Assembly (NCBI GenBank): GCA_021807085.1 | Contig: JAKAPM010000004.1 | Coordinates: 1-60,745 of the forward strand | DNA length: 60,745 nucleotides | Direction of reading: 5' to 3' | Origin: Nanobdellota archaeon | Lineage (GTDB): Archaea; Nanobdellota; Nanobdellia; Parvarchaeales; Parvarchaeaceae | Shown: positions 3,985 to 57,520 of the stretch, in pieces | How positions within the stretch are numbered: the first letter of the stretch is position 1 | Layout: each line of letters opens with the position of its first letter | Position numbers and translations under genes: made by a program | The notes under the pieces: model-generated | What the model was told of the DNA's origin: nothing | What the model saw: only the letters and a program-made list of their open reading frames with translations | The model's database searches: none

Positions 3985-4461
3985 ATGCGTTACAAAGGAA
4001 AGGACGTCTCGCTGTATCTGTATGTGTTAGCGGCTTTCGCCGCCGTCGGCCTGGCGTCGATGGCATACCTGTATCTCGGATTCGGACTCGGCATAAACGC
4101 AATAAGCAACAGCTGCACGATATACAGCACGCCTTTTGACTGCGGTAACGTCGTCACGAGCCAGTACTCCACGTTCCTCGGCATAGACTGGTATTATTAC
4201 GGGATAGCGTTCTTCTCTGCCATTCTGGCTGCGACGGTTGCATTCTGGCTCAGCGATATCAAGAGAACTAAGGAAAGGATACTCTATGCGATAGTAGCTG
4301 TAAGCGGCGCAGGGGCGTTCGTAGCCGCGTATCTGATATACACCGAATTGTTCAGGATACACTATATATGCGAATTCTGCACTGTCGGACACGCATCGAT
4401 ATTCATAATTTTCGCGGCATCGCTTCTGCTTGCCGAAAAGACCAGACATCACCGAGAATAG
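3985..4461 (+). CDS. VKOR-family (vitamin K epoxide reductase-like) membrane thiol oxidoreductase
   Basis: 158 aa with about 4 TM segments, a loop cysteine pair (SCTIYSTPFDC) and a CxxC (CEFC) at the start of the last TM. Confidence 0.6.
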   Translation: MRYKGKDVSLYLYVLAAFAAVGLASMAYLYLGFGLGINAISNSCTIYSTPFDCGNVVTSQYSTFLGIDWYYYGIAFFSAILAATVAFWLSDIKRTKERILYAIVAVSGAGAFVAAYLIYTELFRIHYICEFCTVGHASIFIIFAASLLLAEKTRHHRE

Positions 4462-7577: not shown

Positions 7578-10500
7578 TCAGCTAACGGATCCTAAACTGA
7601 CACTGGGCATCACGCCATTCGGTGGCGTATAAGAAAAGAATGCGTATTGTACAGCTATTACATTATTTCCGCCTGCACCTCCATTTGCCAAAAACGTAGT
7701 ACCATAAATACTTGAATCTTGTGAAAAAGCAGAAAATGAGGTCGTTGAACCTACTTCGACACCGTTTATGTAACTGATAAGGGTAGAACCGTACCAAGCC
7801 TCTGAAAGCAATGCTGGATAGGAATATCCACTATATGTATAAATGCTAGTCGGACCACCTGTTCCACTATTATAATAATAAGCTCCTCCCGTTGTTGTAA
7901 AAAGAGAACCTGAAAAATCTCCTCCCCATCCATTAGTAATAGACTTACCGCCTGTGGTGATAGAATTGCTATTTGATAACTGCACGGGAGCTTCCGAATT
8001 TGCTGAGAGTATGTTAGAAGAATAAATATTCCATGTTAAATCGTTGCTCACGGCATTTGTAGTATAGAAACCGACCGCATCATAGGTACCAAATGCATCC
8101 TTAACTGACCAGCCATTATTAACGGTGAAGGTACCACCATCCCCATTGGTAGCATCTGTTATCCCACTTGAACTTGTTCCAGCGAAGTTCCAGTAATATG
8201 GGAATAAAATCGCTCCACTGTCATATTCCGCATAAGTACTTGAAAGCTGTGGAGCTATACCTGTGTTTAGGATGTTCAGCACGTTCTGATTCGTGAACAG
8301 CATCTGGATACCTACATTACCATTGGCGGGTATGGTTCCAACTTTTAGCCAATATGTTGCAATCTCGTCGTAAGAGGAAGCGTTCTCTCTCCACGACGGG
8401 ATGACTGTTCCGTTCGGCCATATAAACAGTACATTACTCATTTCGGTGTTGGCATACGACTCGTAATTAGCCATGTTCACGTTAAGATACTGCTCGAACC
8501 CGGAAGGTGTCGCGCTGCTCTGCGAATTCGACAGAGTTACCGGCACGTACGTACATTCACTCAGCGAATTCGAGAACGCCACCCCGACCGTCGAACCGGC
8601 AGTTGCGCTAGACGAGGAAGGCGAGGGATTAGCCGAGGAGTTATAGCAGTTGTAATCTTCGTGCATTAAAGGAAAAGAGCCTGTCTGCTGTATGGTTATT
8701 GCAGAGGGACTGACGGGATTCGCCGTCACATCCGAGTAAGGAAGCAAATCTACGGAATTGCTGTTCGGTGTCCATGCTATGACGCTGAACGCTGACGAGA
8801 GCGATTGAGCTCCGTTGATACCTACGAAACTCATTCCGCCGCCGCATGTGTTCGTCCAATCCACCGCAACCTTGTAGAGACCGGGTGTTACTGATATCGT
8901 GGAAGTGTAAGGCGCAGTCGATGGGGAGGTTCCCTGGCCGTGCCATTGATTCCCGCCGAAAACGCTGTTCCAGGAACTGCTGCCATACGGCTGATAGAAA
9001 ATTTCCGTTCCGTCGTCGGTCCAAACCGTGAACGTGACGGACGATGAAAAGTAGACGTATGCAGTGGCGCTGAATCCTTCGGAATTATAGGGCGAACTGC
9101 AGGAAACTTGGGTGTTCAGGTCGCTTAGCGCGGATGAGAAAGCCTGTACGGGCATTCCGTACACTTGACCTTGGTATGCAGACGTCCCGTAAGACCACTC
9201 TATCTGGTATCCTGTGAGAGACGGAAGAGAGTATGAAAACGCGGGTATGGCAGAACCGCTGGAAGTGGTTACAATCTGCGTGCTTGTAGCTTGCACAAAA
9301 CCGCTTGTTATCCCGTTGTAGGTCACATTCCAGGGATAATTGCTAGACAGTCCGGATTCGTCAAAGGTTGTTGTACACTGTGTGGATGACGAAAAGACTA
9401 TCTGAGTAGTTGAGCCGGCATTAGCGTTGCCGGAACCTGGCGAAGGCGAGTAAGTGGTCGTGCAGGCGTACGATCCGCTGCTGTTTGTTTTCGTATCTAT
9501 CGTATACGCGTAACTGAAAACACTGCCAGAATATGTGTAGGTCGCGCTGTACTGTATGGAATTCGGCGCAGACGCGCTTCCACCGTTACTGTTGTAAGTC
9601 ATTGTCCAGGTATACGCCGAAGGAAGGCCGCTCTCCGAGAATGTTGTGGTGCACGACCAGACTCCGAAATTGTAGCCGACTCCCTGCTCGACGGCCGCGG
9701 AGGCGCTGCACTGTAATCCCGACACGGAAGCCGACGCTGTATAACTAGTAAAGGAAGAGCCGCTCTGGGAAGTAGAGAGGGTTATCGCATTTCCAGTGGA
9801 AGCCGAACCCTGTTTCCCGTCGTAGACAACCGACCAGGTATCTCCAGAAGGCAGCCCCTCTTCGGTGAAAGCGTTGGTGCACGCCGTATTCGCAGAGAAC
9901 GACACTACCACAGTAGAGCCGGCGGTCATGGTTCCGGAGGTAGGATTGGGGGTGTAGGTAGTAGTGCAGTCGGCTGTGGAATTCGCTAGGGTCTGGACTG
10001 TGTACGGGAAGGAACCGGGCGCGCCGAAGAACGTTATTGAACTGGGGGCATCGGCACTCTTGTTTAGGGAAGCGAGTTCAACCGCCCACAGGCGTCCTGG
10101 GGGCAGTCCGTTCTCGGAGAAGGTGGTGTTACACGTGCCGGCAAACTGTATTATCTGGTATTCTCCGACCGCCAGCGACCCAGACGAAGGGGATGGCGCG
10201 TAGGAACACCCGGTGTACGTAAGTGTCTGCACGGTGAAAGAATGCGAGCCGGAACTTACAGGTACGAAGGCTATCATGGAATTGGACGAACTCTGTCCCG
10301 TCCCGTCGTATATTACCGTCCACGTGGTGCCACTTGGGAGGTTCTTCTCTATGAAAGTCGCCTCGCATGAACTGGTGAAGTCCACGCTTTCCGTGTATCC
10401 TGCTTGTAGGCTACCGGCCGAAGGTACGGGCGTATAAGTACAGTTGCTGACCTTGGATGTGTAGAGTGTGAACGAATGCGAACCGAAAGGGGTCACGAAG

Positions 10501-11081
10501 GATATGGACGAAGCCGACGAACTCTTTGTCACGCCGTTGTACGTCACATTCCAGCTTGCGCCTATGGGAAAGCCATACTGCTGGAAAGTTGTCGTGGAAG
10601 AAGGCACGGCGAGCTTTGAAGTGGTCGTTGTGAACAGAATGGAACCGTTAGACGTGCTGTTAAGGAAGCTGCTGACGGCGTAATCTATCTGCACGTTCAC
10701 CTTCACCTTACCTGCGGCCAGGCTGGCCGGTATCATGCAGAAGGAACTCTCGCCGGGAGGAAGTGATAGATAAGTACACTCGAGTGCGCTGAAGGAACTA
10801 CCGTTGTAGAACAGCGTCAGCCTGTTCAGGCTTACGTTCACGTCCAAGTCGTTGGTAAGAAGTATGTCGAAATTGGTCTGGTTGGCGGCCACCTGGCTGA
10901 CTACAACGCTGTTGAAGCCGCTTATCACTGGTGCTGACGACACGAAGTTGGTGATGTTTATTATGCCTATCGAGAAAAGGACAGCCACAACTGCGACTAT
11001 CAGGATTATCATCCACCCGTATGTTATCAGGAATTCCAACGCCGACTGCGAACGTCGGGGCAAAAGCGGCTCAAACCACAT
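7578..11081 (-). CDS. Giant pilin-like surface protein: class III signal peptide, pilin-head domain, about 7 'GLPxGxxW' modules, PA14-like domain, DUF2341-like and lectin-like C-terminus
   Basis: 1167 aa. The N-terminus MWFEPLLPRRSQSALEFLITYGWMIILIVAVVAV fits the archaeal Q-x-[SA]-x-E class III motif. Repeats are of the type TTTFSESGLPSAYTWTMTYN. The PA14-like stretch is VTFTVWTDDGTEIFYQP...PGLYKVAVDWTNTCGGGMSF. The DUF2341-like stretch is YVPVTLSNSQSSATPSGFEQYLNVNMANY...NGTVIPSW...YWLKVGTIPANG. Confidence 0.8.
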   Translation of the reverse strand: MWFEPLLPRRSQSALEFLITYGWMIILIVAVVAVLFSIGIINITNFVSSAPVISGFNSVVVSQVAANQTNFDILLTNDLDVNVSLNRLTLFYNGSSFSALECTYLSLPPGESSFCMIPASLAAGKVKVNVQIDYAVSSFLNSTSNGSILFTTTTSKLAVPSSTTTFQQYGFPIGASWNVTYNGVTKSSSASSISFVTPFGSHSFTLYTSKVSNCTYTPVPSAGSLQAGYTESVDFTSSCEATFIEKNLPSGTTWTVIYDGTGQSSSNSMIAFVPVSSGSHSFTVQTLTYTGCSYAPSPSSGSLAVGEYQIIQFAGTCNTTFSENGLPPGRLWAVELASLNKSADAPSSITFFGAPGSFPYTVQTLANSTADCTTTYTPNPTSGTMTAGSTVVVSFSANTACTNAFTEEGLPSGDTWSVVYDGKQGSASTGNAITLSTSQSGSSFTSYTASASVSGLQCSASAAVEQGVGYNFGVWSCTTTFSESGLPSAYTWTMTYNSNGGSASAPNSIQYSATYTYSGSVFSYAYTIDTKTNSSGSYACTTTYSPSPGSGNANAGSTTQIVFSSSTQCTTTFDESGLSSNYPWNVTYNGITSGFVQATSTQIVTTSSGSAIPAFSYSLPSLTGYQIEWSYGTSAYQGQVYGMPVQAFSSALSDLNTQVSCSSPYNSEGFSATAYVYFSSSVTFTVWTDDGTEIFYQPYGSSSWNSVFGGNQWHGQGTSPSTAPYTSTISVTPGLYKVAVDWTNTCGGGMSFVGINGAQSLSSAFSVIAWTPNSNSVDLLPYSDVTANPVSPSAITIQQTGSFPLMHEDYNCYNSSANPSPSSSSATAGSTVGVAFSNSLSECTYVPVTLSNSQSSATPSGFEQYLNVNMANYESYANTEMSNVLFIWPNGTVIPSWRENASSYDEIATYWLKVGTIPANGNVGIQMLFTNQNVLNILNTGIAPQLSSTYAEYDSGAILFPYYWNFAGTSSSGITDATNGDGGTFTVNNGWSVKDAFGTYDAVGFYTTNAVSNDLTWNIYSSNILSANSEAPVQLSNSNSITTGGKSITNGWGGDFSGSLFTTTGGAYYYNSGTGGPTSIYTYSGYSYPALLSEAWYGSTLISYINGVEVGSTTSFSAFSQDSSIYGTTFLANGGAGGNNVIAVQYAFFSYTPPNGVMPSVSLGSVS

Positions 11082-11221: not shown

Positions 11222-11320
11222 ATGCGTAGAAGGGATTTTTCGCTAAAAGACGAAGTGGATGAAGACCCCGACGACGACTACGATATAGAGCGGGACGAGT
11301 CGCTGTTTGAGGGAGGTTAG
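11222..11320 (+). CDS. Possible 32-aa acidic micro-ORF, below the ORF-track cutoff
   Basis: ATG..TAG encodes MRRRDFSLKDEVDEDPDDDYDIERDESLFEGG. Its stop overlaps the convergent prepilin peptidase stop. No other support. Confidence 0.15.
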   Translation: MRRRDFSLKDEVDEDPDDDYDIERDESLFEGG

Positions 11321-12156
11321 GGCAGACTAGATATAAATATCGAGAAAAGCGGATTTCCGAACAACACCGTTATCAGGACTCCGAGAAAGATTCCGGGTAT
11401 GAACGGCAGTCCTGTCTTTACAAGCACTTCCTCTATCTTGTTTGATTTCAGCTTGTCTATATCATGTTTTGTAAGGCCGGTGGATTTGGGACGGAGTATG
11501 GTGCGTCCGTCCGCATCCTTGACGTCCTCCGCTATCCAGTCCCCCTCGATTAGTTTGGATGTCCCAGTCTTAACGAAAACCACCGTCGTGGATATAAGGT
11601 ACATATAACGCATGGCTATCAGGAGGAACAATATCGCTGGGACGAAAAATTCCAGCGGAAAAGGCAACAGTAGGTATGCGGATACCACGGCAACCGCACC
11701 GCCAGCTATTAGGGGAAAGTCGTAGCTCTTGAAGTACTTCTTTAGCTTACTGTATTTCAGAACACCCAGCACCAGCGTGCCGAACAGGCCGTATATCCCC
11801 CCCGCGACCATTATGTTTATGAAAAGAGATATAAAAGAAGTGTTAGACGTCAGGCTTACTGATGTGAAGACGAAACTGAGCCCGAGCATTATTTGGACGT
11901 CTCCGCCGGCCCACTGCCCCATTACATACATAAGGTAGGAAAAACCGAACAGTGCGATAAGAGACAGCGGGAAGTATTCTATGGTTGATATTGAGCCTGC
12001 GTACACCGCCCTGAACAGCATCAGCAGGACGGAGCCGAAGATTAGAGTGTACAGGAGGAATTCTGGCACTTCCCTCGTCCTTATGTCGAATAACGACGAC
12101 AGCCCGAGTACCGAGAGGACAAAGATAAATATAATATAATCTATTGGATATACCAT
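11317..12156 (-). CDS. Archaeal type IV prepilin/preflagellin peptidase (A24 family, PibD/FlaK/EppA-like)
   Basis: 279 aa, polytopic. The two catalytic Asp contexts are LFDIRTREVPE and WAGGDVQIMLGL. An extra soluble insert precedes the last TM. Confidence 0.8.
   Translation of the reverse strand: MVYPIDYIIFIFVLSVLGLSSLFDIRTREVPEFLLYTLIFGSVLLMLFRAVYAGSISTIEYFPLSLIALFGFSYLMYVMGQWAGGDVQIMLGLSFVFTSVSLTSNTSFISLFINIMVAGGIYGLFGTLVLGVLKYSKLKKYFKSYDFPLIAGGAVAVVSAYLLLPFPLEFFVPAILFLLIAMRYMYLISTTVVFVKTGTSKLIEGDWIAEDVKDADGRTILRPKSTGLTKHDIDKLKSNKIEEVLVKTGLPFIPGIFLGVLITVLFGNPLFSIFISSLP
12125..12140 (+). promoter_or_regulatory. AT-rich TATA-like element for dph5, embedded in the peptidase coding sequence
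   Basis: ataaatataatataat is centred about 28 nt upstream of the dph5 ATG at 12160. Confidence 0.3.
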
Positions 12157-12159
12157 ATT

Positions 12160-12918
12160 ATGTTGTATCTAATTGGTACTGGCTTGTACTATATAAACGA
12201 TTTGCCGCTGAGGGCCGTCGAGACGCTGAAAGCGTGCGGAGAGGTGTTCCTGGAGAGGTATACGAACCCCAACGACGTGTCCAATATCGGCGAACTTGAA
12301 AAGATTATAGGGAAGAAGATAAATGTCCTCGGGAGGGAGAGGGTCGAGAGCGACCTGCTTGTCGAAAAGGCAGCGGAAGAGGACGTCTGCCTCCTTGTGC
12401 CAGGGGATCCGCTTGCTGCTACCACGCACATGTCCCTTATAACCGAAGCCTGTGAGAAAGGGATAAAGTACAGAATAATACACTCCTCCAGTATCTTTTC
12501 CGCGATAGGGGAGACGGGACTGTCTTTGTACAAGTTCGGCGGTACTGCCAGCATACCAATATATTCGGAAGGTTACAAGCCGGAGAGCTTTTTCGACGTT
12601 ATAAAGATGAACAGGAAGGACGGCATGCACACCCTTGTGCTCCTGGAAGCAAGGGACGAAAAAAACTTTCTTGACATCGGGAAGGCAGCGGAAACACTGA
12701 AAAACATAGAGAGGAAGAGGGGAGAGAAAATCTTAGACTGGGATACCATCATGTTCGCTTCCAGACTCGGCAGCGAACAGCAGGAAATCGGGTTTGTAAA
12801 GGGTTCCGAGAACCGTGTACACAGCCCACCTGTATGTCTCGTAATACCGGGCGAAATGAGTGATTACGAGAAGGAAGCAGTAAGGGCACTTTTGGCTGAT
12901 ACGGCGGATTCTAAGTGA
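12160..12918 (+). CDS. dph5: Diphthine synthase
   Basis: 252 aa. It has the tetrapyrrole-methylase-fold N-terminus MLYLIGTGLYYINDLPLRAVETLKACGEVFLERYT and the motif LVPGDPLAATTH. Confidence 0.85.
   Translation: MLYLIGTGLYYINDLPLRAVETLKACGEVFLERYTNPNDVSNIGELEKIIGKKINVLGRERVESDLLVEKAAEEDVCLLVPGDPLAATTHMSLITEACEKGIKYRIIHSSSIFSAIGETGLSLYKFGGTASIPIYSEGYKPESFFDVIKMNRKDGMHTLVLLEARDEKNFLDIGKAAETLKNIERKRGEKILDWDTIMFASRLGSEQQEIGFVKGSENRVHSPPVCLVIPGEMSDYEKEAVRALLADTADSK
12190..12197 (-). promoter_or_regulatory. TATA-like element for the prepilin peptidase, embedded in the dph5 coding sequence
   Basis: The minus strand reads TTTATATA, about 34-41 nt upstream of the peptidase ATG at 12156. Confidence 0.25.
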
Positions 12919-13786
12919 CGCTGACCGGAAGACTGTTCGAGGATACGCAATAGGTATATGCAGTGCTGACGTTTATTGATATGTCGTTGGAATAACCGAG
13001 AGAGCCCGCGACGGGTGGTATCTCTAACTTGAACGGCATGGGAGAGAGGAGATTTCCGCTCTGGAAGGCAAGCTCGTAGTTGCTGGATGTAAGGTTTATG
13101 TTGTCAACCTTCTCCACCACACCAGTATAAAGGGTGAAATACGCGTAGTCGTTGCTGATATTCACATCGACCCATTTGAGACCGCCTGTAGTGCCGTAGC
13201 TTGAAAGCTGCTCGGAGTTGATGTACTCGGTGTCGTTGACGGTCGAAGGGGGCGCCACTATGCTGTTATTGAACCCTTCCAGATACAGCGAAATCGGCCT
13301 GCCGCTCGAGAACGATGGCGCGGAGGTTGGAGGAGTGCCGGTAAACTGGTAGTTCATCAGAGTGACCGGATAGTCGGCATAGGCAGTATCGTTGAAGCAC
13401 ACTTTGAACGTTATCGCGCAGTTGGCAGCGCTACTGCTGGAGAATGACCATGACAGCGATGCGGGGGAATCTCCTGGTATGGATATGGTCCTGGTTGCAG
13501 TGGACAGGAAGGAGCAGCCGAAAGGAACGATAGACACAGTCATCGGTGAACTCCTGCTGTTCGCCAGGCTGGTTATGACCTGGAATTGTTGGTTTGGGTA
13601 TAGGGACAGCAGGCTCTTCGGTGACGTGGAGTTGACTGATATCGGCACGAACGCGTTTGTCTTGACTGTTTGCGTATTTCCAGGGAGAAGGCTGCCAAGA
13701 TAACCGCCTTCGTATAGGAACAAAAAAGCAGCCACTACCACGACGATTACTATCAAAAACGCGATTCCGGTCTGTGATTTTACCAT
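12911..13786 (-). CDS. Secreted or N-terminally anchored protein, possible class III signal peptide (surface locus gene G)
   Basis: 291 aa. The N-terminus is MVKSQTG/IAFLIVIVVVVAAFLFL. It has many N-x-S/T sequons and ends ...INVSTAYTYCVSSNSLPVSVT. Confidence 0.65.
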   Translation of the reverse strand: MVKSQTGIAFLIVIVVVVAAFLFLYEGGYLGSLLPGNTQTVKTNAFVPISVNSTSPKSLLSLYPNQQFQVITSLANSRSSPMTVSIVPFGCSFLSTATRTISIPGDSPASLSWSFSSSSAANCAITFKVCFNDTAYADYPVTLMNYQFTGTPPTSAPSFSSGRPISLYLEGFNNSIVAPPSTVNDTEYINSEQLSSYGTTGGLKWVDVNISNDYAYFTLYTGVVEKVDNINLTSSNYELAFQSGNLLSPMPFKLEIPPVAGSLGYSNDISINVSTAYTYCVSSNSLPVSVT

Positions 13787-13790
13787 AACA

Positions 13791-14729
13791 TCATTGACAC
13801 GTTATCACCGAGGGGGTACCTGTCAGCGAAAAGAAGTAGTTGTACTTGACAGCCACTTTCACCACGCTCTGTGAGGTCCTGCCCAGGTTTAGGGCAGTGA
13901 CTTCCAGCGGAAGCCCTGATTTCACCAGCTGCATGTAGACGTTGCTCAGCGTTACGCCCAATACGCCAGGGGAAGTCTGCACCAATGGATAAGAATTGCC
14001 GTTGTAGTACACAAAAGCAGAAGCTATGCCTCCTGCGGACGATGAGTTGAGTATCGATATGGTAACCTGGCTTATGTAATCGTCCGGCGATCCGACTATC
14101 ATCTTGCTGTACGGTTCGCCGTTGTCATAAGTCGTCGGGGAAAACACTATGTTTATTGGTTCTTGGAGCGAAGCGGGCACCTGCGTCTCGATAGTGACCG
14201 GGTCCGCTGACATCGTTATGAAACCGTAGTTGTTGTTGTCGTATATTTGCTGGGGTATCAGTGAGGAGGAGGTCCCGTAAGGATAGGTCACCACGGAAGT
14301 GGTTAGGTTCTGCCAGAAATCCGGCATTTCTACCGAGAGGAGGTATGTGGACTGCTGTGCTGAACCGATACAAGTCACATTGAAGTCTATCGAAGACGGT
14401 TTGCTCATGTTCGCCTGCATGAGCACGTGTCTAGACGGGTTCGACACGGTTATGAAACTGGGTGCACCGACTGACAGGTTTACCCTGGCGTCTATAGACT
14501 GATTGTACGGGTTCAGGAAACTTAAGAAGAGGAGGGCGGAATGTCCCGTCAATATGGTGGATGAGGATATGTTAGAGGAAGCGCTGAAACCAGTGCTGGT
14601 TGAGCCGCCCGGGCCGCCTAAGTTGAATTTTCCACTGCTCAGGGCGTATACGGCTATCAGTACTATCACGACAAGTACTACGCCTATCAGCGCGACGTTG
14701 TTCGCCCCCCTTTTGCCAAAATAGCCCAT
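13791..14729 (-). CDS. Secreted or N-terminally anchored protein, possible class III signal peptide (surface locus gene F)
   Basis: 312 aa. The N-terminus is MGYFGKRG/ANNVALIGVVLVVIVLIAV. It is sequon-rich and ends ...VAVKYNYFFSLTGTPSVITCQ. It sits 4 nt upstream of gene G. Confidence 0.65.
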   Translation of the reverse strand: MGYFGKRGANNVALIGVVLVVIVLIAVYALSSGKFNLGGPGGSTSTGFSASSNISSSTILTGHSALLFLSFLNPYNQSIDARVNLSVGAPSFITVSNPSRHVLMQANMSKPSSIDFNVTCIGSAQQSTYLLSVEMPDFWQNLTTSVVTYPYGTSSSLIPQQIYDNNNYGFITMSADPVTIETQVPASLQEPINIVFSPTTYDNGEPYSKMIVGSPDDYISQVTISILNSSSAGGIASAFVYYNGNSYPLVQTSPGVLGVTLSNVYMQLVKSGLPLEVTALNLGRTSQSVVKVAVKYNYFFSLTGTPSVITCQ

Positions 14730-14774
14730 ATAAATGATAATCCTCGCTTTCTATATAAATATAAACTAGTATGA

Positions 14775-15722
14775 TTATTGCGACAATAACTTCACTTGGA
14801 AGAAACCATCCTCTTCATACGAGTATGATATGTGCATGTTTATATTCGACGTCACGTACGGCACGCCGGAATCTGAGAGCTTGGATTCTTCCGATGGGTT
14901 CAGGCTGACTGGCAGTATTATGGACAGACTACTCTGGCCGAGATACTTCTGCGCCGTGAAAACGACTGTGCCGTTCGGGTACGATACAGGCGTGAAACCG
15001 TAGTTTCTTGCGGAGCTGATGTTGATTATGGAAGAGTTCATGGACAGGGTTATTGTCATTTCCCCCACCACTATCCCCGTCCCAACGTTCTGTATGTCCA
15101 CGCTGAGCTGTGCATCCTGCCCGTACACGATCGGCTGTTGCGCCGAGCTGCTAACGGACACCGGGCCGGCAGAGCTGTCAAACGACGCTGCCTGCGGAGC
15201 GGGAACGCCGGACGAGGTGCCTTGGGATACGAACTGAAGACTCTGCACCGAACTGGAGCCGTAGGAGAAATTTATGTAGTAACCGACTATCTGGGCGTAC
15301 GGGATGTCTCCGTACGCGGATGCCGGCGGGGACTGCAGACTGTAGGATTCCGACAGTGAGCCCCCAGCGAAAAGCGACGGTACCACTACGCACCTGCCGC
15401 CAGACGTTAGCGTGAACAGCCCAAGGTTGTCCAGGCAGAGGTTGACGTTCGATGCGTCCTTTCCGTTCAGGTTGTTCAGGAGCAGAAAACTGACCCCGAA
15501 TGTGGATTGCGGCGTTATGCTGGAGGGATAGGACAGGCCGGTAGCTATGACTCCTTCGGTAGGCGGCACCGTCAGCGTCTTCACGGGGGATATCCCGAAA
15601 TATGGGGTTATGTTGGGAAGCAGAAGGGCTATTACGGCTATGAAGCCTATCACTACCACTACCGACAGCGCGCTCGCGCCCTTGTTGTTTCCGAACGGTT
15701 TTACCATATCAATCACTTGCAT
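14775..15722 (-). CDS. Secreted or N-terminally anchored protein, possible class III signal peptide (surface locus gene E)
   Basis: 315 aa from the ATG at 15722, which overlaps the upstream gene by 10 nt. An alternative ATG at 15707 gives MVKPFGNNKG/ASALSVVVVIGFIAV. It ends ...NMHISYSYEEDGFFQVKLLSQ. Confidence 0.65.
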   Translation of the reverse strand: MQVIDMVKPFGNNKGASALSVVVVIGFIAVIALLLPNITPYFGISPVKTLTVPPTEGVIATGLSYPSSITPQSTFGVSFLLLNNLNGKDASNVNLCLDNLGLFTLTSGGRCVVVPSLFAGGSLSESYSLQSPPASAYGDIPYAQIVGYYINFSYGSSSVQSLQFVSQGTSSGVPAPQAASFDSSAGPVSVSSSAQQPIVYGQDAQLSVDIQNVGTGIVVGEMTITLSMNSSIINISSARNYGFTPVSYPNGTVVFTAQKYLGQSSLSIILPVSLNPSEESKLSDSGVPYVTSNINMHISYSYEEDGFFQVKLLSQ

Positions 15723-17230
15723 TTCGCCGTCTCATTGTTCACTTGGAATGGCATGTTCAGCAATTCGCTGTAGTTGTACGTCACCGAAGCCACTATCGAC
15801 ATGGTGTTGAAATGCAGCCCGTTTAGGCTGGTAACGGCCGGCAGCGAGAATATTGACGAAGGGGAGCCCAACTGAGAAGACGATAGGGTGCAATACCAGT
15901 ATCCGCTTCCAGGGAACACAAAGCCTTCAAGGGTGTGGCTGACGGCGTCGGAGCACTGCCAGTTGCCGTTCGAAGGGTTGTTCGGATAGAACTGCTTGTT
16001 TATGAACAGCCCTAGGCTAGATATTGAATACGACCCGGAATAGGCTCCGGAGCCAGTGTTCTCTATGGTGACTGATATCGGTACGGATTCTACTTGTGTA
16101 GATACGGGCTGGTTTATGGAGACTCCCATCTTTATCTGGAGAGGCCCAGGAGTGACGAAATCGAAGGAGGGTGTGGACGGCACGAGCGCCTGCGAAGAGG
16201 CTAGGAGTTTTTGGCTGAAGCGGTACGATATGAATTCGACAGGCAGTATGGCGGCGGCGGTATAGTTCTCCACCGTGAAATTAGTCAGCATGGAAGCGCC
16301 GGTCGGATACGTGAGCGACACGGAAGGGCAGTTGAAGTAGAAGGAAGTCTGGTTCTCTATTGTCTCGCTTGGCAGCATCTCGGGGATGAGCGGTATGCCT
16401 GAAATCTGAGCCGAAGACGACTTTTTAGGCGTCACGAACGATGAAAACATTTCCTGGCACACGCGCGCAGACTGCTGGGAATTGGTGTTTCCGCACCCTA
16501 TGGATACCAGGACGTTGTTGTTAGAATCCAAACCAAGCGGAACGTTGGAATTGTCTTTTACCGAATACAAGAGCGTGCCGAGCTGCGGACTGTCCGTCAT
16601 CGTCAGCTGCTGGTTCGAAACCGACGTGGGTATGAGGAACGAACTGAACGTCTGAGTGGTGTTTATCACGTGCACGGGAGGTTTGCCGGTGCCGTAAGGA
16701 TTGTTCATGTAGGCTATTCCTCCCTGTATCGAACCCACTAGCTGGGATATCAAGCCTTTGAATGAATTGAAGTACGAGCCATAATAGGTGTTGAAGTAGT
16801 TGGCGGAGTTGCTGTTCTGTCCGTAGGCATACCAGTATATAATGACCACCACAACTATAATCAGCACAGGTACTATAAGGAGAGTATATTTCTTAGCGGA
16901 ACGCACCAGCACGTCCCTGTCTATGAGTTGCCTCGCAGAGCGCTGCCTTTCGAGCTGCCTCATCGCTGCCGCACTTTTCCTGTAAACTGGATTCAGTTCC
17001 GGATGTTTCTTAAGGTAACGCTTGTTCATGTAGGCTAGGGCCGAGACGGATCTGGTGTTACCGTGTACAGAGAGCCTGTGATCTAGTAGTTCGGTCCTGC
17101 GCCTGAAAGGCACGCCGCACTCTGGGCACACGTATTTGGCTTCCCAGAACTTCCGCTTTTTGGGCGACTCGGGGGCATTCTGTCCACCGGGCGGTGGTAC
17201 ATTTTGCCCGTCGCCGTTCGAATCAGCCAT
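15713..17230 (-). CDS. Single-pass membrane protein with an N-terminal cytoplasmic C2H2 zinc finger and a large extracellular domain (surface locus gene D)
   Basis: 505 aa. The finger YVCPECGVPFRRRTELLDHRLSVHG fits C-x2-C-x12-H-x4-H. A basic linker is followed by the TM YTLLIVPVLIIVVVVIIYWYAY and about 370 aa of sequon-rich ectodomain ending ...VASVTYNYSELLNMPFQV. Confidence 0.7.
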   Translation of the reverse strand: MADSNGDGQNVPPPGGQNAPESPKKRKFWEAKYVCPECGVPFRRRTELLDHRLSVHGNTRSVSALAYMNKRYLKKHPELNPVYRKSAAAMRQLERQRSARQLIDRDVLVRSAKKYTLLIVPVLIIVVVVIIYWYAYGQNSNSANYFNTYYGSYFNSFKGLISQLVGSIQGGIAYMNNPYGTGKPPVHVINTTQTFSSFLIPTSVSNQQLTMTDSPQLGTLLYSVKDNSNVPLGLDSNNNVLVSIGCGNTNSQQSARVCQEMFSSFVTPKKSSSAQISGIPLIPEMLPSETIENQTSFYFNCPSVSLTYPTGASMLTNFTVENYTAAAILPVEFISYRFSQKLLASSQALVPSTPSFDFVTPGPLQIKMGVSINQPVSTQVESVPISVTIENTGSGAYSGSYSISSLGLFINKQFYPNNPSNGNWQCSDAVSHTLEGFVFPGSGYWYCTLSSSQLGSPSSIFSLPAVTSLNGLHFNTMSIVASVTYNYSELLNMPFQVNNETAKCK

Positions 17231-17253
17231 AAATGATTATAATTGAAACTGGC

Positions 17254-17260
17254 TTATATA
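17254..17260 (-). promoter_or_regulatory. TATA-like element about 27 nt upstream of the gene D start codon
   Basis: The plus strand reads ttatata (minus TATATAA), centred at 17257. The ATG is at 17230. Confidence 0.35.
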
Positions 17261-17308
17261 CATTTCAGAGCCCAAAACACTGTGACTATCGTTACCGACT
17301 GCGCACCT

Positions 17309-17494
17309 CTATATAAAGGGCGACTTGGCGAAACTCATCGTCTGCAGCATCTTTGCCAGAGTGGCATTGGTGGAGGATATGAACACAGAGAAAGGCACAG
17401 CCAGATATATCGCTGGGTTGACATTCTGAGGATAAAAATGCTTAGCTTTACGATTATCAGTCAAATAGACGTGAACCTTGCTGATCGTCGGCAT
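17309..17494 (-). CDS. Possible 61-aa protein tightly following gene C
   Basis: The ATG lies 10 nt after the stop of 17505..18122. It is on the same strand as the locus, has one weakly hydrophobic stretch and no recognisable motif. Confidence 0.25.
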   Translation of the reverse strand: MPTISKVHVYLTDNRKAKHFYPQNVNPAIYLAVPFSVFISSTNATLAKMLQTMSFAKSPFI

Positions 17495-17504
17495 CTTATC
17501 GGAA

Positions 17505-18122
17505 TCATCTTGAGAAACGCAACGAACTGGTAATTTCGCTCAGGGCATAGCTGAACTCGGACGAAAACTGCCTGTTGGAGTTATGCATGGATATTATGGT
17601 GACTTTACCGGACGGGCCCATTACGACAACTAACACTATTTCTCTCCCGTCCACAGAAGTGTTCATGGAAAACGAGCTGTAACTGGAAAATGTGTAGTTT
17701 GTGATGTTGTAAGCGGGCACATTCAATGCTTCCAGTGCTTTTACCATACCTGAATAATAGAAGGAGAGGTCATTTACAGTATCGTTCTGGAAGACAAGTA
17801 TATAATTCGATATATTGACGTGTCCGCTTTTAGAATAATTATCGTAGAGGTACTTTGGCAGCATAAATGCGGAGTGGCTGTATGGAAAAGTCAGTGTAAG
17901 TTTCGTTAGGTTGGCTATAAACATTTGGTTGCTGGAATTAAATGACAGAGAAGAGCTATTGTAATAGTGGAGGGACTGTGAATAGTAGCCCACGGTATTG
18001 TTCGATTGGTTTGCCGTTGTGGATAACTGGTTAAAACCAGTATAAAACACCATCGATATAATTACTGCCGCTGCAATCACCACCCCCAACACCGCTATTC
18101 CCGCTTTTTCTGTTTTCTTCAT
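17505..18122 (-). CDS. N-terminally anchored extracellular protein, possible class III signal peptide (surface locus gene C)
   Basis: The start is revised to the ATG at 18122 (MKKTEKAG/IAVLGVVIAAAVIISMVFY), giving 205 aa. The tracked 5' extension to 18383 overlaps the upstream gene in another frame and looks non-coding. Confidence 0.6.
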   Translation of the reverse strand: MKKTEKAGIAVLGVVIAAAVIISMVFYTGFNQLSTTANQSNNTVGYYSQSLHYYNSSSLSFNSSNQMFIANLTKLTLTFPYSHSAFMLPKYLYDNYSKSGHVNISNYILVFQNDTVNDLSFYYSGMVKALEALNVPAYNITNYTFSSYSSFSMNTSVDGREIVLVVVMGPSGKVTIISMHNSNRQFSSEFSYALSEITSSLRFSR

Positions 18123-18132
18123 ACAAACACCT

Positions 18133-20877
18133 CTAAATACAACCCTGTGTGCCGACGCTGTAAGTAATGTAAGCGCCCGCACCAGAGAGTGTAGCCCCGC
18201 CAGTGGAAGGTGCAGTCCACACATACTGCGAAAGTAAGCCGGAATCACCGCAGATCCCATATATAGGATTACCGCAACCACTAGTGGTCCCTCCACTTCC
18301 GCACACGCCGCTCCAAGCAAACGTATAAGAACTAGCGCTCGTGCTATAAAAGCACGCTCCAAAAGCAAGACCTGTCTGTCCATTCGGGAGGGGGGATCTG
18401 TTATTTCCCCAGTTCAGCGTTTGGATGGCACAACCTATATTCGCTTCTTCATTGTAATTCGAATCTGGTAGGGGGGAGCCAGACGTAATAAACAAGTAAT
18501 TTACACAGGTCCAGCTGTTAAGTGATACTGAAGAACCTTGTGTCACGCTACTCCCTCCATCATTACATGGTTGACTCTGGTACGGAGCGTAACTGCCAGT
18601 TAGGTATGTTCCGTCCGGTCCGCCGAATCCACTATAACTGGGGGAGGATATGGTTCCTATGTTGGACTGTGTTACTTGGATATTATTCCCAGAACCTGTG
18701 CTGCCTGTGTCAGATCCATCGAAGTCCACAAACCAGTAATACACCCCAGCTGGGAGATTGGATGAAAAAGTGGTAGTGCAGGTCCACGTTCCGAGCGTCA
18801 CAGTGCTTTGCGTACCCTGCTCTATATTCTGGGAATTTGAATGGCAGGCTAGATTCGCGCTGTACGCAGTCGCCGAATAGGATGTCACGGAGCTTACCGT
18901 TTGCTGGACGGATATTGATGAGCCCGTATTTTGGTTGCCGGAGTTGCCGTTATAAGAAACGTACCACTGCTGGCTGGATGGAAGGCCGGTCTCGGAGAAC
19001 GTGGTAGTACAAGTCCATGTACCTAGAGTGACTGTGGAGCCTTGTTCTATGCTAGCCGACGAGGAGTGGCAGTTTATGTTGTTATCGTATGCCGTTCCCG
19101 AATAGCTGGCAACGCTGCCTATACCAGATTGCGTAATGTAAGTTGGCGAACCTGTATTTGCAGAGCCGGTAGGCGAGCCACTGTACGACGTGTACCACGA
19201 CTGTCCGGACGGAAGCCCATTTTCGTTGAATGTGGTCGTACATGTCCATGTGCTGAGGGCATCGCCCGATGTACCCGCGTTGAAGGAGGAAGTGGAGGAT
19301 GTGCACGCCAAGTTGTTGCTGTATGCAATGGCAGAAAGCGAGACTACGCTGGGTATGTTTGATAGGGTCACAGACGCAGCTGACCCTGTATTCGCAGCAG
19401 CAGAGTCGGCACCATCGTAGTTTACATGGTATTGCTGGCTCGATGGGAGTCCTGTTTCTGAAAATGTTGTTGTGCATGTCCATGCATTGAACGTGTATAC
19501 CGAGCCTTGGTACAAAGAAGGTTTATCGTATGAGTTGCAACTAAGGGACGACGGGTAACCTTCGCCGGGGTATTGCGACACCGTTGTCAGGTTTGTCTGC
19601 GTCACTGAGGTCGATGAACCTGTACTGACCGTCGGTAGCGTGCCGTCGTAAGTAGCGTACCATTGCTGGCTGGATGGAAGTCCTGTTTCTGAAAATGTTG
19701 TTGTGCATGTCCACGTTCCGAGGTCCACATATGAACCCTGCTGCATAGTCAACGGCGACGAGACACAATCAAGATTTTTACTGTAAGCCGTGTAAATATA
19801 ATTGGATATCACAGGTATATTTGACTGTGTAATTGATATGGACAAACCTGTGCTGCTGCTACTCGTTGATGAAGAATTGTAGGTAGCGTACCATTGCTGG
19901 CTGGATGGAAGTCCTGTTTCTGAAAATGTTGTTGTGCATGTCCACGAACCTAATGTGGGGGAAGTGCCCTGCTGCGGACTCTGGGGAGCGGAAGCGCAGG
20001 TAAGGTTGTTGCTGTACGCGGTCACTGTGGGGGACGTGACACTGGAAAGGCCGTTCTGAACGAACGATATCTGCGAACCTGTGTTTGCACTGGAGGAGTT
20101 TATGCCGTCGTAAGTCACGTGCCACCGCTGGCCGGATGGAAGGCCGGTCTCGGAGAACGTGGTAGTGCAGTTGGAGAGGAAAGGTATCTGGTTTATCTCG
20201 CTGGTCGGGGATACTCCCGCATTTCTTGTTGAATAGCTGGTGCAACCATAATAAGTCACTTGCGGGACGCTGAAGTTGTAGTTGCCGAAGGGCTTCTGGA
20301 AGCTGACGTTGGCGCCGCTGGTGGTGACTATGCTGTAGGCCGTGCTGCTGCCGAATGTCACGGAGAAGTTGCTGCCAACCGGAAGACCCTGCTCTATGAA
20401 GTATGTTATCTGTGTGTTTATTGCCAGGGGTCCTCTTATGGTGGAGGAAGTAACAGTCCCATTGGATGCAAGTTCAAGCTTTGAATGGAACGGGACGAAG
20501 CCTATGTCCACGGTTGAGACGAAGCTACCAGGAACGATATTAACGCCTACCCTGCACAGCGTGTTCTCGCCCTGGGCGAGTATGGAACGCTGGCAGTTGA
20601 GTGCGGTGAACGTGCTGTTGCCGACTATCACCGAGATATCGGTGAGATTTATTGTAGAGCCAAAATCGTTGCCTATCTGGAGCACGAACATCGATGAGTT
20701 GATCACAGCGTCGGACACGGCCACCCCCTGGAAACCGCTTATTATCGTAGACGGTGATCCCGTCTTGAAAACACCGAAGCCGTAAAGAATTGCAATGGAT
20801 AGAGTAACGACGACGAGCACCCAGCCCCAGCTTATCAGGTACTCCACAGCGGACTGGGCGTCATTTCCTCCGAACAC
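18133..20877 (-). CDS. Giant pilin-like surface protein: class III signal peptide, pilin-head domain, eight ~77-aa 'CTTTFSETGLPSxQxW' modules and a Cys-rich C-terminus (surface locus gene B)
   Basis: 914 aa. The N-terminus is MFGGNDAQSAVEYLISWGWVLVVVTLSIAIL. The head domain is alignable by eye with that of 7578..11081. Modules start at aa 237, 313, 391, 468, 546, 623 and 700, plus a degenerate first copy near aa 159. Confidence 0.8.
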   Translation of the reverse strand: MFGGNDAQSAVEYLISWGWVLVVVTLSIAILYGFGVFKTGSPSTIISGFQGVAVSDAVINSSMFVLQIGNDFGSTINLTDISVIVGNSTFTALNCQRSILAQGENTLCRVGVNIVPGSFVSTVDIGFVPFHSKLELASNGTVTSSTIRGPLAINTQITYFIEQGLPVGSNFSVTFGSSTAYSIVTTSGANVSFQKPFGNYNFSVPQVTYYGCTSYSTRNAGVSPTSEINQIPFLSNCTTTFSETGLPSGQRWHVTYDGINSSSANTGSQISFVQNGLSSVTSPTVTAYSNNLTCASAPQSPQQGTSPTLGSWTCTTTFSETGLPSSQQWYATYNSSSTSSSSTGLSISITQSNIPVISNYIYTAYSKNLDCVSSPLTMQQGSYVDLGTWTCTTTFSETGLPSSQQWYATYDGTLPTVSTGSSTSVTQTNLTTVSQYPGEGYPSSLSCNSYDKPSLYQGSVYTFNAWTCTTTFSETGLPSSQQYHVNYDGADSAAANTGSAASVTLSNIPSVVSLSAIAYSNNLACTSSTSSFNAGTSGDALSTWTCTTTFNENGLPSGQSWYTSYSGSPTGSANTGSPTYITQSGIGSVASYSGTAYDNNINCHSSSASIEQGSTVTLGTWTCTTTFSETGLPSSQQWYVSYNGNSGNQNTGSSISVQQTVSSVTSYSATAYSANLACHSNSQNIEQGTQSTVTLGTWTCTTTFSSNLPAGVYYWFVDFDGSDTGSTGSGNNIQVTQSNIGTISSPSYSGFGGPDGTYLTGSYAPYQSQPCNDGGSSVTQGSSVSLNSWTCVNYLFITSGSPLPDSNYNEEANIGCAIQTLNWGNNRSPLPNGQTGLAFGACFYSTSASSYTFAWSGVCGSGGTTSGCGNPIYGICGDSGLLSQYVWTAPSTGGATLSGAGAYITYSVGTQGCI
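18510..20403. repeat. Coding tandem repeat array, period about 231 bp (77 aa)
   Basis: A 64-nt stretch is identical at 19652-19715 and 19883-19946. Related copies occur near 18950, 19190, 19430 and 20110. Confidence 0.85.
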
Positions 20878-20936
20878 AATAGACCACTACAGTAACATGT
20901 TGCCAGCAGATAAAAACCTTTAAAATTGTTGGAGGA

Positions 20937-22142
20937 TTACGGAGTGACCGGCTTTATCGATATGTACTCGGGTACTATCAGACCGTTCGATGACAGAGTA
21001 ACGGTTCCAGTGTATTCGCCGTTCTTCAGGTCACCTGAGAGAAACGATGGTGTGAGTATTACTGCGTTCTGACCAACGGCCAGCTTGTCGGACGTTATAG
21101 TAGTCGATTGTCCAGACGGATAGAATGTCAGAGTGAGGTCTCCGGAGTTTATGATATTTGCGACGTCAACCACGAGGGCGTAGTTGTTTGCATTCGAATT
21201 AACATTGTAGTAAAGCGTTAGAGAGTTGGGCGCTATGCTGGGTATCTTGTAGGACAGTTCAGCGTTGGCTATCTCATACGACGAGCCTTTGCCCGGTACG
21301 AAGTCCACGCCGAACCCGAGGGGCAGCACAGTGGACGATGAGGACAGGCCAGACTCCTGTATTGCGTTGGATACCACAGAAGGCGGAAGTGTAAGTGAGA
21401 CTTGGTTGTTGTTTATGCCTATCGCAGTTGCGACGCTTATGCCGTTAACATAAGTCGTTAGGTTGCCAGACCCTATCTCCGTGTAGTTGAGGAAATAGTC
21501 GCCTATGCCGCTGAAAGTCATCACTTTCACGGAGTTGCTTACGTTGGCAGTATTGTCGACCTGTTCGATTATCTTCATGCTGTCCAGCGTGAAGGATTGC
21601 GTAAACGCAAAGCCGTTGAGGTAATCTGTTATCGAGAGAATCGCTTTCTTGCCGCTTATCTGCGGCAGCTTGACGATGATACTCTCGTTGTTGACAGGGA
21701 ACGCGGTGTAGAACTGACTGCCGTTGAGGGATAGGGCGAGTTTCGGCGACCCCGATACGCTTCCGATGTCCATGTAAAGGTAATAAGTGTCTGAAGCCGT
21801 GTTGTTGAATACCAAGTCGTACGATGACGAACCGAATATCGACGAACCTATAGTCTCGGACGCTTGGGTGAATATGGTCGAATTGCTCTGGCTGTAATAC
21901 ACGCCGAAGGTGCCTATCGGATAAGTCTTGATCTGTGGCTGTGGATAGCCTCCTATGTATGAAGATATATTCTTGAAGAAAGTGCCGGGTGGCACGGAAA
22001 ACGCATTAGTCGAGGTGTTGTTTATTCCTAATAGCTTGTAGGTCGTTGCCGGCGGCACCAACAAGAGGTATACCACTATCGATCCTATCAGCATGAGCAT
22101 GAGTACCACTACAGCCGGTATCCTCTCCCTAGTGTCCACCAT
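20937..22142 (-). CDS. N-terminally anchored, sequon-rich extracellular protein (surface locus gene A)
   Basis: 401 aa. The N-terminus is MVDTRERIPAVVVLMLMLIGSIVVYLLLV. The remainder is a beta-rich S/T/N/G composition with many N-x-S/T sequons. Confidence 0.6.
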   Translation of the reverse strand: MVDTRERIPAVVVLMLMLIGSIVVYLLLVPPATTYKLLGINNTSTNAFSVPPGTFFKNISSYIGGYPQPQIKTYPIGTFGVYYSQSNSTIFTQASETIGSSIFGSSSYDLVFNNTASDTYYLYMDIGSVSGSPKLALSLNGSQFYTAFPVNNESIIVKLPQISGKKAILSITDYLNGFAFTQSFTLDSMKIIEQVDNTANVSNSVKVMTFSGIGDYFLNYTEIGSGNLTTYVNGISVATAIGINNNQVSLTLPPSVVSNAIQESGLSSSSTVLPLGFGVDFVPGKGSSYEIANAELSYKIPSIAPNSLTLYYNVNSNANNYALVVDVANIINSGDLTLTFYPSGQSTTITSDKLAVGQNAVILTPSFLSGDLKNGEYTGTVTLSSNGLIVPEYISIKPVTP

Positions 22143-22166: not shown

Positions 22167-22174
22167 TATATAAA
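22167..22174 (-). promoter_or_regulatory. TATA-like element about 28 nt upstream of the gene A start codon
   Basis: The minus strand reads TTTATATA. The ATG is at 22142. Confidence 0.35.
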
Positions 22175-53075: not shown

Positions 53076-53120
53076 ACAATTAATATTATATTTAAACGGC
53101 TGTATTACTAATATGCTTAA

Positions 53121-57392: not shown

Positions 57393-57520
57393 ATTATAGC
57401 ATTACTCAAAAATAAGATATACTCCACATTTAAATGTCTTTAGCAGGAAATTGCACCGTAGCCCACGATGCACTCAATGCAGATAGCAGGATATAGAGGT
57501 TAGATTAGTCTCGTTTCTAA

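Follow-up and report, generated by a model that had tools for sequence, protein, structure and literature searches.

A stretch of 60,745 nucleotides from a Nanobdellota archaeon (NCBI GenBank assembly GCA_021807085.1, contig JAKAPM010000004.1, positions 1–60,745; referred to as the window) carries a run of seven minus-strand genes, A to G, whose products have one hydrophobic N-terminal helix each and are rich in N-x-S/T glycosylation sequons. The question raised by this block is whether it encodes a single surface or host-contact apparatus, as a first-pass annotation of the window had proposed. DPANN archaea have tiny genomes and live attached to other cells, and the proteins of their envelope and those by which they hold their hosts are almost uncharted. 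Comparison with related loci has shown that the object of interest is narrower and older than that annotation had it, namely a DPANN-wide five-gene surface cassette, A-D-E-F-G, with an apparent lineage-specific change of anchor, and that the block in the window is a composite of this old cassette and an insertion of B and C. The cassette is read here, with moderate confidence, as encoding a conserved DPANN envelope or adhesion complex, the immunoglobulin (Ig)-like subunits of which have switched their anchor in this lineage and have been joined to a pilus-adhesin locus.

Conservation of the A-D-E-F-G cassette

The closest genome, L004 (related loci are denoted by L numbers), is a metagenome-assembled genome labelled Nanoarchaeota, the diphthine synthase of which is 65% identical to that of the window. 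A tblastn search recovers from it A, D, E, F and G together with the prepilin peptidase and the giant pilin-like protein that flank the block, at 55–71% identity (55–70% for the five cassette proteins). A, D, E, F and G are kept in order in L041 at 38–50% identity, and the flanking housekeeping genes of the relatives are 57–65% identical. The order PolB-MetAP-FEN1-DUF357-A-D-E-F-G-(dph5)-peptidase-giant pilin is found in L004, L039, L041/L042 and L037, the L037 locus being without F, and PolB-MetAP-FEN1-DUF357 likewise forms one flank of the cassette in the window. Since the cassette is present only in L004, the closest relative, among 33 archaeal dph5 neighbourhoods, its linkage to dph5 is clade-specific.

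More distant loci carry the same genes in the same order, with lengths of 461-550-338-325-349 amino acids (aa) in L043, 396-628-368-296-347 aa in L047, 403-687-363-318-383 aa in L051 and 391-(114)-600-870-303-362 aa in L052, which belongs to Ca. Tiddalikarchaeum; L050 has the same gene set with insertions, and L044 has A-D-E only. Profile hidden Markov models (HMMs) of the Parvarchaeota families match these loci position by position, with E-values of 2e-41 to 2.5e-10 for A, 4e-9 to 3e-4 for D, 8e-37 to 4e-20 for E, 3e-14 to 2e-3 for F and 1e-19 to 6e-4 for G; these ranges cover L043, L047, L051 and L052, in which the five-gene order is kept, plus L050 with its additions. Positional orthologues of A and D are found in L044, L047, L043, L051 and L052, and those of G in L043, L047, L051 and L052. 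Housekeeping genes surround the distant cassettes; in several loci, SecDF and Hel308 form one flank and PAC2 and eIF2alpha the opposite one.

Thus the same five families occur in one order in at least eight separately assembled lineages, ranging from close relatives to loci whose similarity only profiles detect, and with varying flanking genes. All relatives that have a source name are DPANN archaea (Parvarchaeota, Micrarchaeota, Aenigmarchaeota, Nanoarchaeota and Ca. Tiddalikarchaeum). A word-indexed search with E among 5.8 billion proteins found 7 clusters of homologues, a corresponding search with D found at least two proteins, and an HMM search with E of 1.84 billion representatives found 103 relatives, 13 of them close and ~90 distant. 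The best explanation is that A-D-E-F-G is an ancient, vertically inherited DPANN cassette. Conservation of gene order, which the first-pass annotation had named as a test, is strongly positive for A-D-E-F-G among relatives and distant DPANN archaea alike; the claim of one apparatus of seven or eight genes did not stand, for the reason given in the next section.

Two genes adjoin the cassette in some of the distant loci. A 237-aa KaiC/RecA-like ATPase (PF06745, DUF7125) is encoded directly upstream of it in L043 (86–799); as a candidate motor for the cassette this protein was rejected, being absent from L047, L051, L052 and the window. An MJ0043_C protein adjoins the cassette in L047 and L050, and is presumed from its PHP-type N-terminus to be an EndoQ-like housekeeping enzyme of DNA repair.

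Insertion of B and C between A and D

B and C are missing between A and D in L004, L037, L039 and L041/L042, where A abuts D with a gap of 34–52 nt (38 nt in L004). Because they are missing in every relative examined, B and C represent a lineage-specific insertion into the older A-D-E-F-G cassette. No orthologue of C was found in any related locus fetched, and C was inserted along with B. In L050 (4398–7430), the A-like and D-like genes are separated by an inserted group of toxin-antitoxin genes of the nucleotidyltransferase/HEPN and HicB-like types, indicating that the A-D junction has been an insertion site in at least two lineages.

Predicted TATA-like boxes lie 23–32 nt upstream of the ATG of A, D and F, at positions conserved in L004 and L041. 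The A box recurs as the same element at the same distance in L004, L041 and L037, and a similar element stands at an equal distance before F in L004 and L041. The D box is conserved in L004, within the short A-D gap, and the match of the C-D spacer to L004 is confined to its last ~31 nt, the promoter region; by sequence, the D promoter appears to be older than the B/C insertion. Two transcription units, A-C and D-G, had been drawn at first, which is too simple in view of the conserved box before F. The arrangement of boxes suggests leaderless units A, D-E and F-G, with B-C added after A. TATA-like boxes are also present somewhat further upstream of the start codons of the peptidase and giant pilin genes.

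B is a giant type IV pilin-like adhesin with a class III-type N-terminus (NDA/QSAVEYLISWGW, the slash marking the putative processing site), Glu at position +5 and six tandem repeats of ~77 aa (FSETGLPSxQxW). It is paralogous to the second giant pilin-like adhesin, of 1167 aa (31% identity, E 1e-57 by BLAST among the window proteins), the N-terminus of which (RRS/QSALEFLITYGW) also has Glu at +5. These two are the only pilin-type N-termini with Glu at +5 in the window; the Pfam class III model gave no match for either, and the assignment is a direct reading of the motif. The 1167-aa protein has a weak DUF2341 match at residues 882–936, and its orthologues of 977–1436 aa in L004 and L041/L042 are placed after the peptidase gene. 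C has a short leader, a Gly and a hydrophobic helix (MKKTEKAG/IAVLGVV) and, at 5.4 sequons per 100 aa, the highest sequon density in the block. It resembles F only marginally (HMM score 5.5, the highest score of 500 shuffles being 4.4), and C is at best a tentative candidate for a fragment of F.

Other features of the window touch on these giant proteins. A third one, of 1003 aa (31844–34855, plus strand), has a class III-like N-terminus (MNGRG/QLITMFFLV), and strong matches to both DUF2341 (E 1.3e-16) and phrog_7548 (E 1.5e-44), and is probably another PilY-like pilus adhesin, located far from the peptidase. Directly downstream of the gene for the 1167-aa protein there is a complete archaeal 23S rRNA gene (4511–7399, minus strand), which stands alone, no 16S or 5S rRNA gene being found within the 60 kb; at the corresponding place in L004 and L041, the giant pilin gene is followed by a gene for a conserved, N-terminally anchored protein of 284–299 aa. 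A VKOR-family protein for disulfide-bond formation is encoded near the locus (3985–4461, plus strand) and may have a bearing on the cysteines that recur at regular intervals in the repeats of B and of the 1167-aa protein.

Domain organization of the cassette proteins

The A family comprises 42 clusters, nearly all of them named Candidatus Parvarchaeota, and includes ARMAN-5 BJBARM5_0095. An AlphaFold2 (AF2) model of A (32 sequences, mean predicted local distance difference test (pLDDT) score 82.5) shows a helix at residues 10–28, a linker and three beta-sandwich domains. Foldseek matches of this model are multi-domain jelly-roll proteins only (Cry protoxin, BcsB, reelin and sugar-binding domains of glycosidases). 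According to the model, A would be anchored by an N-in signal-anchor helix and would expose three tandem domains like jelly rolls or carbohydrate-binding modules. A forms a family of its own, apart from the domain family of E, F, G and D.

D is bitopic, with a basic cytoplasmic N-terminal part of ~115 residues, a transmembrane helix at ~117–136 and an ectodomain containing an E-like beta-sandwich domain. Residues 33–56 of the cytoplasmic part resemble a C2H2 zinc finger (zf-C2H2, E 4.9e-4, under the Pfam cut-off), the Cys and His residues of which are kept in L004, L039 and L041; the finger, which four Parvarchaeota lineages possess, was not found in L037, L044 or the distant loci.

The AF2 model of E, built from a 7-sequence alignment (pLDDT 78), shows a helix at residues 18–42, a low-confidence linker and two beta-sandwich domains, and its Foldseek matches are generic (Ig-like, MG, integrin, AglB C-terminal and MSCRAMM domains) with low whole-chain TM-scores. 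Structure prediction for A and E, another check named by the first-pass annotation, therefore gave only generic beta-sandwich matches. BLAST among the window proteins finds no pairwise similarity among A, D, E, F and G, the paralogy of B and the 1167-aa protein being the only one detected. Profile alignment by hhalign gives probabilities of 70% for E and G and 45% for F and G, and the similarity of D and E is seen at the profile level. The proteins at the F and G positions of the distant cassettes show clear homology to one another as well as to E. By these profile comparisons, E, F, G and the D ectodomain are paralogous members of one domain family.

N-terminal anchors and the prepilin peptidase

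E has a class III-like N-terminus (NNKG/ASALSVVVV), in which Lys-14 and Gly-15 are invariant in 7 orthologues. In 16 close E homologues, a leader of 5–18 residues is followed by A, Q, V or S at position +1, and Gly occupies position −1 in 16/16 and K or R position −2 in 12/16. The N-terminus of F is also class III-like (MGYFGKRG/ANNVALIG), with the Gly/Ala pair kept in the L004 and L041 orthologues, and that of G (MVKSQTG/IAFLIVIV) retains the Gly before the helix in the L004, L041 and L037 orthologues.

A lipobox signal (L-x-G-C) is present in all ~30 distant E relatives whose sequence was read, and the E, F and G homologues of the distant loci carry such lipoboxes. E, F and G of the window have no Cys at the helix end and so no lipobox. 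The lipobox Cys of the distant members aligns with Asn-37 of window E, at the C-terminal end of the helix, and the core of the former signal peptide would therefore have become a retained helix. Anchoring is favoured over a role as filament subunit because the modelled helices are short and are followed by a flexible linker.

The A24 prepilin peptidase gene encodes a PF01478 protein (E 1.9e-8, 35.1 bits, cut-off 26.5) with a weak FlaK_Arch match, and adjoins the cassette in the window, L004, L041/L042 and the more distant L044. The L044 protein, of 244 aa, matches the window peptidase by tblastn (E 2.7e-11 over 257 residues) and by BLASTP (E 1e-14 over a C-terminal stretch of 60 residues). Adjacency of peptidase and cassette is thus seen in 4/5 lineages of the class III type with readable context, L037 being the exception, and in 0/4 loci of the lipobox type with readable flanks. 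The enzyme is predicted to process B and the 1167-aa pilin, and, judged from their N-terminal motifs, may also process E, F, G and C.

On an Aenigmarchaeota contig (L049, 273–1992), a stand-alone E homologue of the lipobox type lies divergently beside an AliA_AliB (PF01889) gene, a member of the family shown to lipidate archaeal lipoproteins, and this pairing mirrors that of class III-type E with the prepilin peptidase. Euryarchaeal homologues of the Sulfolobus sugar-binding proteins are lipoproteins. The Sulfolobus proteins have class III signal peptides and require type IV filament machinery, and binding proteins with class III signals are reported to be widespread in archaea (bioRxiv 10.64898/2026.04.22.720090). 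DPANN archaea commonly have lipoproteins, but the lipidation enzyme AliA is missing from some of their lineages (PMC12462473).

A model for the cassette and its alternatives

A plausible model is that the products of A, D, E, F and G form a membrane-anchored, N-glycosylated extracellular complex. A would be its signal-anchored jelly-roll head, resembling carbohydrate-binding modules; D would be the sole link to the cytoplasm, in this lineage via a small zinc-finger tail; and E, F and G would be paralogous two-domain Ig-like subunits sharing their domain with the D ectodomain. In most DPANN archaea, a lipid anchor at the lipobox would tether E, F and G. In the Parvarchaeota-like clade of the window, the lipobox Cys would have been lost and the helix kept behind a short basic leader and an invariant Gly. 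The neighbouring A24 peptidase would then trim the leader, and the helix would anchor E, F and G in a bindosome-like manner, as for the sugar-binding proteins of Sulfolobus; E, F and G may also build a short pseudopilus-like stalk. In this genome alone, the giant repeat-rich adhesin B and its small partner C would have been inserted between A and the pre-existing D promoter, adding to the class III-signal surface proteins that are clustered around the peptidase. The most likely function would be envelope organization and glycan-mediated adhesion to a surface or a host cell, and an enzymatic or secretion function is less likely.

Several points weigh against this model. The conserved gene order is suggestive and is not proof, and the five proteins may form no complex. 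F and G are tied to their distant counterparts partly via position-guided alignments. The whole-chain TM-scores of the Foldseek matches of A and E are just 0.12–0.25, and glycan binding is a guess at the level of the predicted fold. E, F and G do not have the Glu at +5 that is present in B and the 1167-aa pilin, the N-terminus of A (RERIPA/VVV) is an atypical class III site, and helices of ~19–25 residues followed by a low-confidence linker, as in the AF2 models, would equally be expected for an uncleaved signal anchor. Processing of E, F and G by the peptidase is argued from their motif and from gene adjacency, and this adjacency describes a correlation but has no statistical weight as a test, because the lineages are related and do not represent independent events.

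A more far-reaching form of the model, which is speculative and has a small chance of being right, would make A-D-E-F-G a near-universal host-contact machine specific to DPANN archaea, with A as a glycan-recognizing head, E, F and G as the stalk and D as the transmembrane link. Its lipid anchors would have been rewired to prepilin-type ones with the adaptation of Parvarchaeota to acid habitats, and the machine, together with the giant pilin adhesins, would have been put under the control of the type IV filament machinery.

The alternative that survives best, though unlikely, is that the whole region supplies the accessory half of an archaeal type IV pilus system of clade 1 (Epd-type). The minor pilins, which prime or decorate a filament, would then be E, F, G and C, and perhaps A; B and the 1167-aa protein would act as PilY-like tip adhesins, the A24 enzyme would be a dedicated EppA-like peptidase, and the ATPase, TadC and a small major pilin would be encoded elsewhere. 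In the clade 1 model, a pair of large DUF2341 proteins is accompanied by five or more class III proteins other than the major pilin, by a peptidase of its own and by major pilins of ~70 aa that are encoded separately (PMC4858521), and a clade 1 system has been reported in DPANN archaea. The window offers an A24 peptidase and giant pilin-like proteins with Glu at +5, DUF2341 matches (a weak one for the 1167-aa protein, a strong one for that of 1003 aa), and leaders of the [K/R]-x-G type on E, F, G and C. However, neither a T2SSE assembly ATPase (PilB/FlaI) nor a TadC/FlaJ platform was found among the ORFs (open reading frames) of at least 329 aa in the 60 kb (Pfam, or precomputed Pfam on an identical contig), the window ORFs scanned gave no T2SSF/FlaJ match for a PilC/TadC/FlaJ platform, and the window encodes no small pilin with Glu at +5. 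E, F and G are without Glu at +5, and their modelled helices are short with a flexible linker after them. In addition, other DPANN archaea hold the cassette as lipobox lipoproteins amid housekeeping genes with no pilus gene nearby, and therefore its original role would not have been in piliation.

A doubtful alternative is that the cassette encodes proteins associated with the surface layer (S-layer). They could make up the lattice, but SlaB-like stalks in the membrane, which keep the S-layer a set distance away from it, would be more plausible. This would account for membrane-anchored, sequon-heavy proteins made of tandem Ig-like or jelly-roll domains and for a cassette kept in a housekeeping context across DPANN archaea, few S-layer components of which have been identified, Ig-rich proteins being expected among them (bioRxiv 10.1101/2023.10.27.564410); an anchor partner has been postulated for the Micrarchaeum S-layer protein (bioRxiv 10.1101/2021.04.28.441871). 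Against it, the window proteins and 28 family members show no PF05123 or PF05124 match, no solved S-layer protein was matched, and five different subunits would be unusual for an S-layer. A few kb upstream of the cassette, relatives also have a separate gene, beside GlmS and PolB, for a ~306-aa protein that matches S_layer_C (PF05124) weakly (L037, 1–886; L039, 1–150; L041, 1–153).

It is improbable that the cassette is the DPANN form of the arCOG01314 putative secretion or membrane-remodelling system (Makarova 2015) or the 'dark matter' family cls.004306 (NEQ255) beside the S-layer-like arCOG02487 (Makarova 2019). Several membrane or secreted families with Ig-like domains belong to the former prediction too (PMC5898192), and the latter is a DPANN-only secreted family, present in 43/67 genomes next to such genes (PMC6393860), which resembles the phyletic pattern of the cassette; yet arCOG01314/DUF4350, a MoxR-type AAA+ ATPase and a vWA protein occur in no gene list of the window and 10 related neighbourhoods. 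A chance grouping of unrelated surface proteins with no functional unit, to which the lack of pairwise BLAST similarity among A, D, E, F and G in the window and the generic folds might point, is highly improbable and is already disfavoured by synteny, given the same five families in the same order in those lineages with differing flanks, the short intergenic gaps and the overlapping genes.

Genomic organization of the locus in the window

The ORF map and independent gene calls agree on the seven protein genes of the block, and three metagenome contigs with identical sequence contain the same genes with the same lengths.

Table. Positions of the block genes, predicted promoter elements and flanking genes in the window (genes A to G from the ORF map and independent gene calls)
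Feature	Position	Strand	Description
TATA-like box TTTATATA	22167–22174	−	25–32 nt upstream of A start codon; predicted
Gene A	20937–22142	−	401 aa; first gene of conserved cassette
Gene B	18133–20877	−	914 aa; giant type IV pilin-like adhesin
Gene C	17505–18122	−	205 aa
C-D spacer	17231–17504	−	274 nt; holds conserved D promoter
TATA-like box TATATAAG	17253–17260	−	D promoter, in C-D spacer; predicted
Gene D	15713–17230	−	505 aa; bitopic protein
Gene E	14775–15722	−	315 aa
TATA-like box TTTATATA	14752–14759	−	23–30 nt upstream of F start codon, in 45-nt E-F gap; predicted
Gene F	13791–14729	−	312 aa
Gene G	12911–13786	−	291 aa
Diphthine synthase gene (dph5)	12160–12918	+	Between G and A24 peptidase gene
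A24 prepilin peptidase gene	11317–12156	−	FlaK/PibD/EppA-type; Pfam
Second giant pilin-like adhesin gene	7578–11081	−	1167 aa; paralogue of B

Most of what the first-pass annotation had described of the block anatomy is borne out. The genes lie on one strand with the coordinates it gave, the gaps A-B, B-C, C-D, D-E, E-F and F-G are 59, 10, 274, −10, 45 and 4 nt, and the prepilin peptidase and the second giant pilin form the flank. Each protein has one hydrophobic N-terminal helix, with 19-residue Kyte-Doolittle maxima of 2.9–3.25 for A, D, E, F and G and 2.3 for B, the helix of C being assessed by reading its sequence only; a comparable N-terminal helix is found in ~8/53 non-overlapping window ORFs, most of them within this gene run. 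The density of N-x-S/T is 1.2–5.4 per 100 aa in the block, compared with 0–0.9 in the identified cytoplasmic housekeeping proteins of the window. The proposed 61-aa ORF between C and D (17309–17494) was discarded as a gene, since no gene caller calls it and it has no counterpart in any related locus.

The impression that the block proteins carry no enzyme motif agrees with family scans, which returned no enzyme signature. No Pfam or NCBIfam family matches A, B, C, E, F or G past the curated cut-offs, a PHROG scan of the block proteins found nothing above its cut-offs, and a Pfam scan of 28 diverse E-family members found 0 families; this profile search, also proposed as a check, gave no clear match to a characterized system. 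Profile searches of the PDB with alignments of E, A and the lipoprotein group gave chance-level matches only. A mobile or viral origin of the block is disfavoured by the PHROG result and the stable housekeeping surroundings. The window also encodes an archaeal 23S rRNA, TBP, PolB, Top6A/B and FEN1, and its source is a Parvarchaeota-like DPANN archaeon.

The stop-proximal end of G and the convergent 3' end of dph5 share 8 nt (12911–12918); the convergent genes are 2 nt apart in L041/L042 and touch in L004, and one housekeeping gene stands between the cassette and the peptidase in three lineages. At the other end of the window, positions 52000–60745 have a G+C fraction of 0.38–0.44, compared with ~0.50 elsewhere. 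This stretch contains a C39-peptidase-like ORF (53640–54182) and a gene for a 1014-aa secreted beta-propeller protein of the lactonase/NHL/YncE-like type (54348–57392), which has 4.3 sequons per 100 aa, second in the window to C, and it may be an acquired island.

Implications for DPANN cell envelopes

A gene order kept from Parvarchaeota to Woesearchaeales-like lineages amid replication and translation genes makes the cassette a strong candidate for a core envelope function, and provides a defined set of targets for experiments, including ARMAN-5 BJBARM5_0095 and its neighbours. If true, the switch from a lipobox to a prepilin-type N-terminus and the move beside the peptidase would add a second, independent case of the route put forward for the Sulfolobus binding proteins, and the anchor switch bears on how surface proteins are tethered in archaea without lipoprotein machinery. 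For annotation, the giant 'mega-pilins' are recent add-ons outside the conserved unit.

Comparison with known systems

The first-pass annotation could not match the gene set and order to any described pilus, archaellum, bindosome or S-layer operon. This holds for the gene set and the libraries searched, whereas part of the neighbourhood does resemble the clade 1, or Epd-type, pilus model (PMC4858521).

The bindosome of Sulfolobales consists of class III sugar-binding proteins, is processed by PibD and is assembled by the Bas system, and the cassette shares with it a short basic leader, a Gly or Ala and a hydrophobic helix as the anchor. By analogy, the prepilin peptidase would be the processing enzyme, as for E, F and G of the window. 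Pfam and NCBIfam detect no solute-binding domain and no ABC (ATP-binding cassette) transporter in A to G or their neighbours, and no BasEF-type ATPase or platform was found. The ectodomains of the cassette are instead Ig-like or jelly-roll tandems, and the cassette has a fixed five-gene order with two non-paralogous partners, A and D.

Clade 1 or Epd-type pilus loci, as in the epd cluster of Methanococcus maripaludis and the model of Makarova 2016 (PMC4858521), share with the window an A24 peptidase, giant proteins with class III signals and further class III-like proteins in a cluster. Epd pilins have the motif Q-x-S-x-E, and B and the 1167-aa protein have Q-x-A-x-E with Glu at +5. The ATPase, TadC and small major pilin of such loci are missing from the 60 kb, Epd proteins show no homology to A, D, E, F or G in Pfam or NCBIfam, and the cassette exists without pilus genes in other DPANN archaea.

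In the bacterial GspH-I-J-K proteins of type II secretion and the FimU-PilV-W-X-E and PilY1 proteins of type IV pili, four to five co-transcribed, helix-anchored and related proteins stand beside a large adhesin and are processed by a peptidase, which would be an analogy of architecture only. There is no relation in sequence or fold, and E, F and G are much larger (290–315 aa, two Ig-like domains), do not have Glu at +5 and have lipoprotein ancestors.

SlaB-type anchors and the Ig-rich S-layer candidates of DPANN archaea (NEQ300, Micr_00292 and MJ1_0160) share with the cassette proteins a glycosylated, membrane-anchored build of tandem beta-sandwiches. The cassette differs from them in having no sequence match to S-layer families, in its five subunits and in the separate S_layer_C-like gene of the relatives. 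The cls.004306 (NEQ255) family beside arCOG02487 (PMC6393860), compared by description only, has a one-line annotation in which no five-gene structure, anchor switch or peptidase link is described. Like the cassette, it consists of DPANN-restricted secreted proteins accompanied by Ig-like surface proteins in a conserved neighbourhood, and the two may be the same thing.

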